Origin: Octopus vulgaris
Lineage: Eukaryota
DNA: 64,000 nucleotides
NCBI GenBank assembly: GCA_951406725.2
Contig: OX597838.1
Span: forward strand, 9,796,001-9,860,000
Direction: 5' to 3'
Below are positions 15,347 to 17,424 of the stretch, piece by piece. A model generated the notes under the pieces. The model worked only from the letters and a program-made list of their open reading frames with translations, did not search any database and had not been told where the DNA came from. Each line of letters opens with the position of its first letter. Positions within the stretch are counted from its first letter, which is position 1. A program made the position numbers and the translations under genes.

Positions 15347-15956
15347 CTGGAAGAAAATAAGAAAATTTCAATGGAGTTCACTTGGTATGTATGTAGTTGG
15401 TTTTCCTTAGCTCTTTTTCAATGTAATTATGGAAATTACACTACCTCAAAATTCTTCATAATCCATTTTTCCGTTTTTTTTTTTTTTTTTTTTTTTTTAT
15501 CCTACTTGTACAGTCTTTGTTTATTGAATAAAGCAAAAGTAAGCTCACAAAGATTATACTTTGCAGATGATGGCCAATCATATTGAATTATTCTTTCGAC
15601 TTCTGAATCGAAAGTCAGGCTCACTCAATACAATAATAAACGTATTAAAAGCATCCAAGTTTCACTTAGCACCATAACAGCTTTTTACAAAGATTTTCTT
15701 TCTTTTTTTTTTTTTTTTTTTTTTTCAGAATAAAATATGGCTACAGCAAAACAAGCTAGAATGAAGTGTAGGCAGTGAAGTGTGGAATATCTTAAGCATG
15801 GTTTTGTGCCATACCAAATAACAAGGCAACCAATGTTCCAACTATTTGAGAAAGTTTTTTTCAAACAAAGCCATGAAACCTTCCAGGTTTTTTGGACATT
15901 TGAGAAAAATACCCTCTGAAAAAGCAGAGAAAAAGTTGACATATTCCCAGTAACTT

Positions 15957-16041
15957 TGTAGTGACACCATCTTGGATTAATATTTAATGTAAAGGATGCG
16001 AGCTGCACCCATCCAGTGCAGGAATCTCTCATCCTGTTACA
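15957..16041 (+). mobile_element. 85-bp mini-LTR (TGTA...TACA) followed by a tRNA-Trp primer-binding site
   Basis: TGTAGTGAC...CCTGTTACA + AT + TGGTGACCCCCGACGTGAT. A second copy spans 16376-16831, split by a family D insertion and flanked by 4-bp ACTT on both sides. Confidence 0.85.
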
Positions 16042-16043
16042 AT

Positions 16044-16109
16044 TGGTGACCCCCGACGTGATTCGAACACACAGCCTTCTGATCTTGAGTCAGATGCGTT
16101 ACCGTTGCG
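16044..16109 (-). pseudogene. Processed (CCA-ended), 5'-truncated tRNA-Trp copy
   Basis: Minus strand CGCAACGGTAACGCATCTGACTCAAGATCAGAAGGCTGTGTGTTCGAATCACGTCGGGGGTCACCA resembles metazoan tRNA-Trp(CCA). The anticodon reads CAA and the 5' acceptor strand is missing. Confidence 0.85.
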
Positions 16110-16412
16110 TGTTCGAATCACGTAGGGGTCACCAATTGTAACAGGGTGAGAGGTCCCCGCACTGGATGGGTGCAGCTCGCATCCTTTACATTAAATATTA
16201 ATCGAAGAAAGAGTCAAGACTTCCGATTAAATTCAACAGTATAAATATTTATTTCTTGATTCGCAATATAAACATTTCCTTCCTCTGGGCCATGAAACCT
16301 TCCAGGCTATTTGAACATTTGAGAAAAATACCCTCTGAAAAAGCAGAGAAGAAGTTGACATATTCCCAGTCACTTTGTAGTGACGCCATCTTGGATTAAT
16401 ATTTAATGTAAA

Positions 16413-16787
16413 TCGAAATTGAACCAATCCTATGACTGGCACCTGGCAGATGCCAGGACCCCTGGACTGGAGATACGTAAAAAGCACTATCCGAATCGTG
16501 GCCGAAGCCAGTGCCGCCTCGACTGGCTTCCGTGCAGGTGGCACGTAAAATGCACCAATCCGACCATGGCCGATGCCAGCCTCGCCTGGCACCAGTGCAG
16601 GTGGCACGTAAAAAGCACCCACTACACTCACGGAGTGGTTGGCGTTAGGAAGGGCATCCAGCCGTAGAAACATTGCCAGATAAGACCGGAGCCTGGGGCA
16701 GGCTTCTGGCTTCCCAGATCCCCGGTCGAACCATCCAACCCATGCTAGCATGGAGAACGGACGTTAAATGATGATGATGATGATGAT
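16413..16787 (+). mobile_element. Repeat family D copy inserted into the second mini-LTR
   Basis: Family D body with internally repeated ggtggcacgtaaaa units and a (GAT)n tail; LTR sequence resumes immediately after. Confidence 0.85.
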
Positions 16788-17424
16788 GCGAGCTGCACCC
16801 ATCCAGTGCAGGAATCTCTCATCCTGTTACAACTTCAAGAAAACTTTCTGAAGTGAAAAATCATTGGAAATATTTTTGCTAGCATTTCAAAAGCTGGTGG
16901 TGGTTTGTGTGCATCATACAGCACCTCATTACTGATTGCTAGATCTGGCAAGCCTCTTACAACAGGAGAGAAGTTTATTCTGCCAACAATAAGAGAGGTT
17001 TTGCACACAATTGTACGTGAATCACCTGAAGAAATCATTAAATCTATTCTTTTAAGTGATAATTCTGTTGAAAGAATAGTGGATGAAATGGCTGCAAACG
17101 TTGAAGACATGTTGTGCAGCATTCTTAGAAGAACTGAATTTATCCTTGAGTTAGATGAGTCACCTCTACAAGGCAATAGAGGTTTTCTTCTTCCCTGTGT
17201 TCCTTTTGTCAAAGATTAGTGTTTGGTTCAAGGGTTACCATTTGCAAATGAACTAGAAACAGACACAAAAGGGGAATCAATATTCCATGTTGTTGACGTG
17301 TTTTTCAAAGAGAAAGACATCCCGCTTTCCGATATTCTAGCATGTGCAACAGATGGGGATCATTGATGGTAGGTTGTCATCATGACTTCATTAGTTTAAT
17401 GAAAAAAGTTGTACCTGGTATTTT

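Follow-up and report, generated by a model that had tools for sequence, protein, structure and literature searches.

A tRNA-Trp-tailed LTR hairpin in Octopus vulgaris: a probable head-to-head join of strong-stop DNAs and its genome-wide relatives

The stretch of DNA analysed here as a whole (the window) comprises 64,000 nucleotides of Octopus vulgaris (assembly GCA_951406725.2, contig OX597838.1, positions 9,796,001 to 9,860,000, forward strand). It holds a decayed transposase fossil interrupted by a compound structure of short LTRs, two tRNA-Trp copies in opposite orientation and an inverted LTR arm, the parts of which are collected in Table 1. An earlier note, made from the letters alone, had placed these pieces at 15870-16835 in the order flank, mini-LTR, antisense tRNA, sense tRNA, inverted arm, flank and LTR, and all of them were found there; the hairpin that it estimated at about 95 bp per arm has core arms of 92 nt that are 91% alike. 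The dinucleotide AT, which links U5 end and primer-binding site (PBS) on the left, is also found between the sense tRNA 3' end (16134) and the inverted LTR arm (16137), and that arm meets the second flank copy through a 2-nt GC overlap. Elsewhere in the window, ARAGORN calls a tRNA-Val(AAC) at 24365-24440.

Table 1. Parts of the compound insertion, in coordinates of the window
Feature	Position	Strand	Remarks
hAT-type transposase fossil, decayed, 5' part (target)	15737..15956	+	relatives in the genome with AMKPSRL..QSL stretch
Flank copy 1	15870-15956		last 87 bp of the 5' hAT part; ends in TSD ACTT 15953-15956
Mini-LTR copy 1, TG..CA, 85-bp	15957..16041	+	LTR first 20 nt + last 65 nt, junction 15976/15977
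AT linker, U5 end to PBS	16042..16043	+	same in the LTR family's 5' LTRs
Mature tRNA-Trp DNA copy, positions 76 to 11	16044..16109	-	native PBS 9-12 nt only
Switch point TGCG	16106..16109	.	antisense positions 14-11 = sense positions 48-51
Sense tRNA-Trp 48-76 with CCA	16106..16134	+	minus-strand reading = second overrun copy, 29 nt
Inverted LTR 3' 152-154 nt, undeleted, other family haplotype	16137..16290	-	TATA-like box and AATAAA inside
Flank copy 2	16289..16375	+	5/87 differences from copy 1; ancestral hAT residues kept; ends ACTT
Mini-LTR copy 2, same deletion junction	16376..16831	+	split at ~16413-16786 by (TGA)n-tailed abundant repeat
TSD ACTT (16832-16835), then hAT fossil resumes	16832..17213	+	

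The host fossil, which we take to be of hAT type on motif likeness and on the label of the earlier reader, gave no match in a Pfam search of the stretch. Its frame over the target-site duplication (TSD) reads YSQSL-QENF and has stops on both sides; the ACTT TSD of the earlier note is retained, and the FQSL frame that it was thought to restore is not. The duplicated segment measures 172 bp (flank plus mini-LTR), and its two copies differ at 6/124 sites. No DNA-level hAT paralogue was available for polarising the flank copies, both candidates (2/2) being the window locus itself, and protein-level relatives were used: copy 2 keeps the residues of these relatives, and copy 1 has derived ones plus a stop. 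The sequencing runs X2, X3 and X5 carry the copy-1 flank type, which suggests that the duplication is older than the lineages of these runs.

The parent of the mini-LTR is a Trp-primed Gypsy family with an LTR of ~430 bp; a Gypsy family with the long LTR and a Trp PBS, beside a single copy, was what the earlier note had named as the sign of a one-off event. A full-length relative (L173) has LTRs that are 93.5% alike, the TSD GTCA, a 10-nt Trp PBS and the domains RVT_1, RT_RNaseH and rve, i.e., reverse transcriptase (RT), RNase H and integrase in Gypsy order. The mini-LTR of 85 bp is this LTR with an internal deletion (~345 bp) at an imperfect internal repeat. Of four matches to the deletion junction, two are exact, both at the window locus, and the other two carry two mismatches; the genome-wide copy check proposed in the earlier note thus comes out in favour of a one-off event. 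Of the 64 sites with an exact U3 start, 30 loci of the family were sampled; none of these (0/30) is a mini-LTR, and 16 are solo LTRs whose 4-bp TSD is exact. The second LTR, formerly described as a longer version, is the same 85-bp unit interrupted by a very abundant repeat of ~370 bp with a (TGA)n tail, which would have entered later. Another locus (L163) shares the insertion of window 16413-16786, with the same (TGA)n-tailed repeat at the same GATG site of the LTR.

The two core arms differ at 4/65 sites, and two of these differences, both non-CpG, are common alternative alleles of the family (11/16 and 13/14 of 28 copies). Since the arm differences segregate in the family and the right arm lacks the deletion, the comparison indicates that the core arms come from two LTR copies. 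The inverted right arm extends to -154 from the LTR end, and because it contains both a TATA-like box at about -136, found in 27/28 family copies, and AATAAA at about -117, it likely reaches into U3. On the other hand, many family copies have GATAAG at -178, which as a TATA-like element could place the transcription start near -150. Other LTR arrangements were seen in the genome: one short, TRIM-like, non-coding unit (L251/L084/L107, G000:C2 near 127978000) has two full LTRs around ~380 bp and the TSD TAGG, and three loci (L022, L025, L248) have LTR copies adjoining short inverted or repeated LTR fragments.

The antisense stretch at the core aligns with the tRNA-Trp(CCA) genes of the genome over 65 tRNA positions, with 4 substitutions and 1 insertion, and is matched by the Rfam tRNA model (E 0.0014); Rfam matches to SNORD124 and rli47 were dismissed as chance-level. 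Its anticodon has changed from CCA to CAA. None of the 33 tRNA-Trp gene or pseudogene loci (0/33) is followed by CCA, and because the copy includes it, the template was a mature tRNA, so that the read-through copy described in the earlier note is borne out by both gene alignment and 3' end. An LTR end is thus followed by the complement of a mature tRNA, CCA included, continuing beyond the PBS, as in over-extended plus-strand strong-stop DNA. In the 5' to 3' direction the top strand gives LTR, AT and antisense tRNA from 76 to 11; on the bottom strand, LTR and AT are followed by antisense tRNA from 76 to 48. The two products overlap at TGCG/CGCA. A template switch had been placed at GTTGCG; the switch holds, and the exact patch common to both tRNA copies shrinks to the 4 nt TGCG; pairing across all 6 nt of GTTGCG requires a G-T wobble. 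Microhomology of at least 4 nt at this joint has a chance probability of 0.016. A cluster of ~20 tRNA-Trp genes lies at G000:C6 58.38-58.46 Mb.

The locus is not alone in carrying an overrun of the primer. A census by an exact pattern of LTR end plus PBS yielded 94 sites; a longer one, with up to 3 mismatches allowed, yielded 36, partly overlapping the first. Each had 0 control matches, and all sites from both were retrieved. Most are ordinary 5' LTRs with a PBS of 9-12 nt. At 46 junctions, from several Trp-primed LTR families, the tRNA complement is at least 16 nt long; 6 of these end at tRNA positions 58-60 (ends at 59-60 number 5), and 40 reach at least 24 nt. Dropping sister copies L230 and the second copy in L100 left 38 copies, which include the two strands of the window; L133 and L139 fell below the junction filter. 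The longest product found (L099:1640-1714, G000:C29 near 5320140) is an LTR followed by a complete mature tRNA-Trp copy to G1, with A58 read as G. In several loci (L083, L144, L156, L018, L025, L155), a PBS of 9-10 nt is followed by further short stretches that match the T arm and the anticodon arm of the tRNA; these native internal regions resemble a bipartite PBS or an over-extension acceptor.

Two positions of the tRNA stand out in these copies. A58 is misread in 9/38 (4 T, 4 G, 1 C) vs 23/1004 other non-CpG sites (Fisher p 7e-7), in a census whose limits on mismatches counter any such excess, and A58 differs in only 1/33 tRNA-Trp gene loci. Furthermore, of 36 ends in the range 53 to 26, 7 lie at position 38, immediately ahead of G37 (corrected p 0.007), and one copy ends at position 26. 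Ends at position 48 show no significant excess (5/38, including the window's own and one likely mis-call), and end calls are blurred by microhomology. The overrun copies thus likely record chemical marks on tRNA-Trp, which in this animal would be m1A58 and a modification of G37. Stops and misreads at these presumably modified bases characterise the class; because both of the window's own copies read A58 correctly, the signature is class-level evidence only.

In a related group of Trp-primed LTRs (L098, L120, L149, L151, L077, L102, around 1250-1800), 3-5 units of LTR end plus PBS stand in tandem, some of them with further tRNA-complement motifs, and the arrays are common to several loci. They may reflect LTR growth via repeated capture of primer copies. 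Boundaries, 5' ends and TSDs of these array-bearing LTRs were looked for and not found.

Several overrun copies have the marks of integration. Among 97 junctions, a U3 start could be called in 70, and 7/70 terminate in an att-like end whose 4-bp TSD is exact. Three insertions (L003, L062, L117) are head-to-head, with an inverted U3 end and an exact 4-bp TSD; four others (L092, L139, L063, L024) have a re-copied U5 end and an exact 4-bp TSD; in one (L065) the TSD directly follows a 39-nt tRNA copy. A further head-to-head insertion (L089) has a TSD with one mismatch. One palindrome (L215, G000:C1 near 174588230) belongs to another family and is an intact head-to-head pair of LTRs of ~500 bp with a 39-nt tRNA copy at its centre, flanked by CTTC/CTCC, again with one mismatch. 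At L209 the inverted arm is cut at 91 bp, and many other overrun copies have no TSD. The sister palindromes run to the U3 end and need no flank duplication, and none has the full layout of the window.

We consider it probable that the hairpin core arose when two plus-strand strong-stop DNAs, both dead-end products of a Trp-primed Gypsy family, were joined head to head, and that the result was fixed once in the hAT fossil. Reverse transcriptase would have overrun the m1A58 stop on the primer tRNA-Trp; the 3' end of the shorter product (or of the longer one, folding back) would then have paired with the D-arm copy and been extended. The displaced tRNA-tailed first plus strand described for Ty3 in part of PMC5371799 would be a plausible source of single strands for such joins. 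Sense after antisense tRNA on one strand needs an antisense template and not the primer, unless a ligation was involved, so the template was presumably a plus-strand product; and since both strands read as plus-strand strong-stop DNA overrunning its primer, tail-to-tail priming fits better than capture of a minus strand. The TGCG microhomology is what priming would give, and head-to-head insertions with a 4-bp TSD exist among the sisters (L003, L062 and L117 exact; L089 and L215 with one mismatch). Against this reading stand the right junction, which is a canonical join of U5 end and ACTT, and the GATAAG at -178 with its possible start near -150. That a simple snap-back on the mini-LTR was all that happened is ruled out by the inverted arm, which is undeleted and of another haplotype. 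One snapped-back molecule copied into a resident LTR would also yield different haplotypes, however, and two RT products are therefore not proven.

For the joined strong-stop DNAs to have become the present locus, chromosomal template-switch repair would have removed ~345 bp from the left LTR and doubled a segment of 172 bp. This may have followed the insertion of a palindrome by integrase, or have taken place during copying into a resident solo LTR. In the first order, the palindrome would be a head-to-head insertion with the TSD ACTT, akin to L215 and L003, later rearranged via template switches at GC on the left and TACAA on the right; this accounts for the sole mini-LTR lying at the hairpin. 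In the second, an intermediate would have been copied into a resident solo LTR via U5 homology, which accounts for the canonical right junction: a resident solo LTR fits that junction directly, and a rearranged palindrome only via the 5-nt TACAA match. Both orders fit the flank duplication, and because all parts of the locus have changed by 3-6%, age does not separate them.

The earlier note took the locus for an accident of reverse transcription, and its one-off nature, the Trp-primed Gypsy source, the mature tRNA and the template switch have all stood. The first of its two suggested routes, capture of primer-linked minus-strand strong-stop DNA, fares less well, and we regard it as unlikely, if still the foremost competitor. 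Here a resident mini solo LTR would have been broken, and the broken end would have annealed to minus-strand strong-stop DNA with its primer, copied the tRNA, folded back and been ligated to the strong-stop DNA; the 3' end of the latter would then have started synthesis in the flank, giving rise to the duplication. Such a course agrees with a left arm that matches the TSD-flanked solo copy at 84/85 nt beside a right arm that is undeleted and of the other haplotype, with the canonical junctions of LTR copy 2, with the GATAAG of many copies at -178, and with two loci, one having a 39-nt tRNA copy directly before its TSD (L065) and one being an LTR cut at its 5' side to about 142-148 nt and bearing a PBS (L012). 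However, the better TATA-like box (about -136, 27/28 copies) lies inside the arm, sister palindromes reach U3, an extra ligation is required, and with 0/30 sampled LTRs being mini, a resident mini-LTR as target would be a coincidence.

Improbable, in our view, is an origin by host replication only, in which a chromosomal LTR with a long tRNA copy, like that of L099, underwent a template switch at a short inverted patch and became a direct-inverted-direct triplication. Long chromosomal overrun copies do exist, and the direct-inverted-direct layout with microhomologies at both joints is as such a switch would leave it, but the inverted arm is undeleted and of the other haplotype, and the third copy ends in a TSD and not in tRNA. 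Later gene conversion and more steps would be needed, and the arms are two haplotypes with no trace of a conversion tract, in the window as in X3.

An assembly chimera is very improbable. A palindrome with a direct repeat in a repeat-rich region invites one, and among the matches listed no record spans the whole stretch; but a 133-nt contig of the independent run X3 covers 16033-16150 across the switch and bridges the hairpin centre, with 3 other letters and 1 gap, and the duplicated copies have diverged as given above. This contig represents another haplotype, because its difference at 16099 restores the tRNA gene base. It is the only one to bridge the centre among the matches listed for 5 runs, which are dominated by the abundant repeat. 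No RNA record that carries the locus is among the matches listed. A contig of run X1 agrees with copy 1 in the left part of the flank and with copy 2 at 15952 and 15966, and its match stops at 15993, the point where the repeat interrupts copy 2; it would be a collapse between the two direct copies.

Hardly credible is the other suggestion of the earlier note, an undescribed TRIM-like mobile family carrying its own primer tRNA: two short LTRs, a PBS and a 4-bp TSD are there, but the deletion junction occurs only at this locus, 1 full-length match was obtained among 40 scored candidates, the sampled LTRs yielded no mini-LTR, and the unit contains host flank and has no purine tract before the second LTR. 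In the parts of PMC10886601 that describe them, Helenus elements (TRIMp3) resemble the locus as short non-coding units of animals with LTRs, tRNA sequence and a 4-bp TSD. Helenus, as presented there, is multicopy, has a PBS and a polypurine tract (PPT), and carries in each of its LTRs a tRNA-like sequence that does not complement its own PBS; the octopus locus, unlike it, is single-copy, and its tRNA copy is an extended PBS that lies outside and after LTR 1 only (PMC10886601). The PBS-PPT layout of such elements has no host DNA, and here the second LTR comes after 87 bp of hAT flank. No further copies of the unit, set between other TSDs, were found. The window locus is a single dead scar, now inert.

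Ty1 cDNA with tRNA is captured at double-strand breaks, and retroviral circle junctions can hold tRNA sequence. As in those cases, RT intermediates with primer sequence have here been patched in with microhomology; those, however, are laboratory events, and the octopus scars are old germline fossils. For HIV-1 with tRNA-Lys3, the portion of PMC13191261 concerned with over-extension of plus-strand strong-stop DNA gives stops at m1A58, 55, 54 and 37, or run-off to the tRNA 5' end. The octopus overruns form the same ladder, with ends at 59-60, just before 37 and at full run-off, but unlike the HIV-1 products described there they are germline-fixed, stem from tRNA-Trp-primed Gypsy elements whose PBS measures 9-12 nt, and are in some cases head-to-head (PMC13191261). 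In yeast, the relevant section of PMC5371799 has the tRNA-tailed plus strong-stop DNA of Ty3 displaced and accumulating as a dead-end product. Ty3 and Ty1 share with the octopus elements a short PBS and a first plus strand that copies the tRNA beyond use; however, they stop after 12 nt, and integration is not reported in that section, whereas the octopus copies have 17-75 nt, several with integrase-type TSDs (PMC5371799). A search of openly available articles in searchable form, limited to their main texts, listed no account of such primer-overrun fossils in genomes.

Primer overrun and dead-end strong-stop DNA are thus already known. What may be added, as a proposal we hold only tentatively, is that dead-end, tRNA-tailed strong-stop DNAs routinely become fixed in the germline through Gypsy integrase and host repair, whether singly, with a U5 end made anew or as dimers joined head to head, so leaving a readable fossil map of primer-tRNA modifications, and that some primer copies join replicating LTR ends and grow into LTR-end/PBS arrays. 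The window locus is the most elaborate member of the class, the interest of which lies in the modification signature, the head-to-head dimers and the possible LTR growth. One practical warning follows: CCA-bearing tRNA matches adjoining LTRs are not tRNA genes. The class also offers a route to copies of the kind "solo LTR plus PBS" for which no full-length ancestor is required. Through it, the termination of the plus strand and what becomes of dead-end strong-stop DNA can be tested in animals without an active element, and it shows from DNA alone how a retrotransposon reverse transcriptase behaved on its primer in the germline, with its stops, its misreads and the dead ends that were made integrable.
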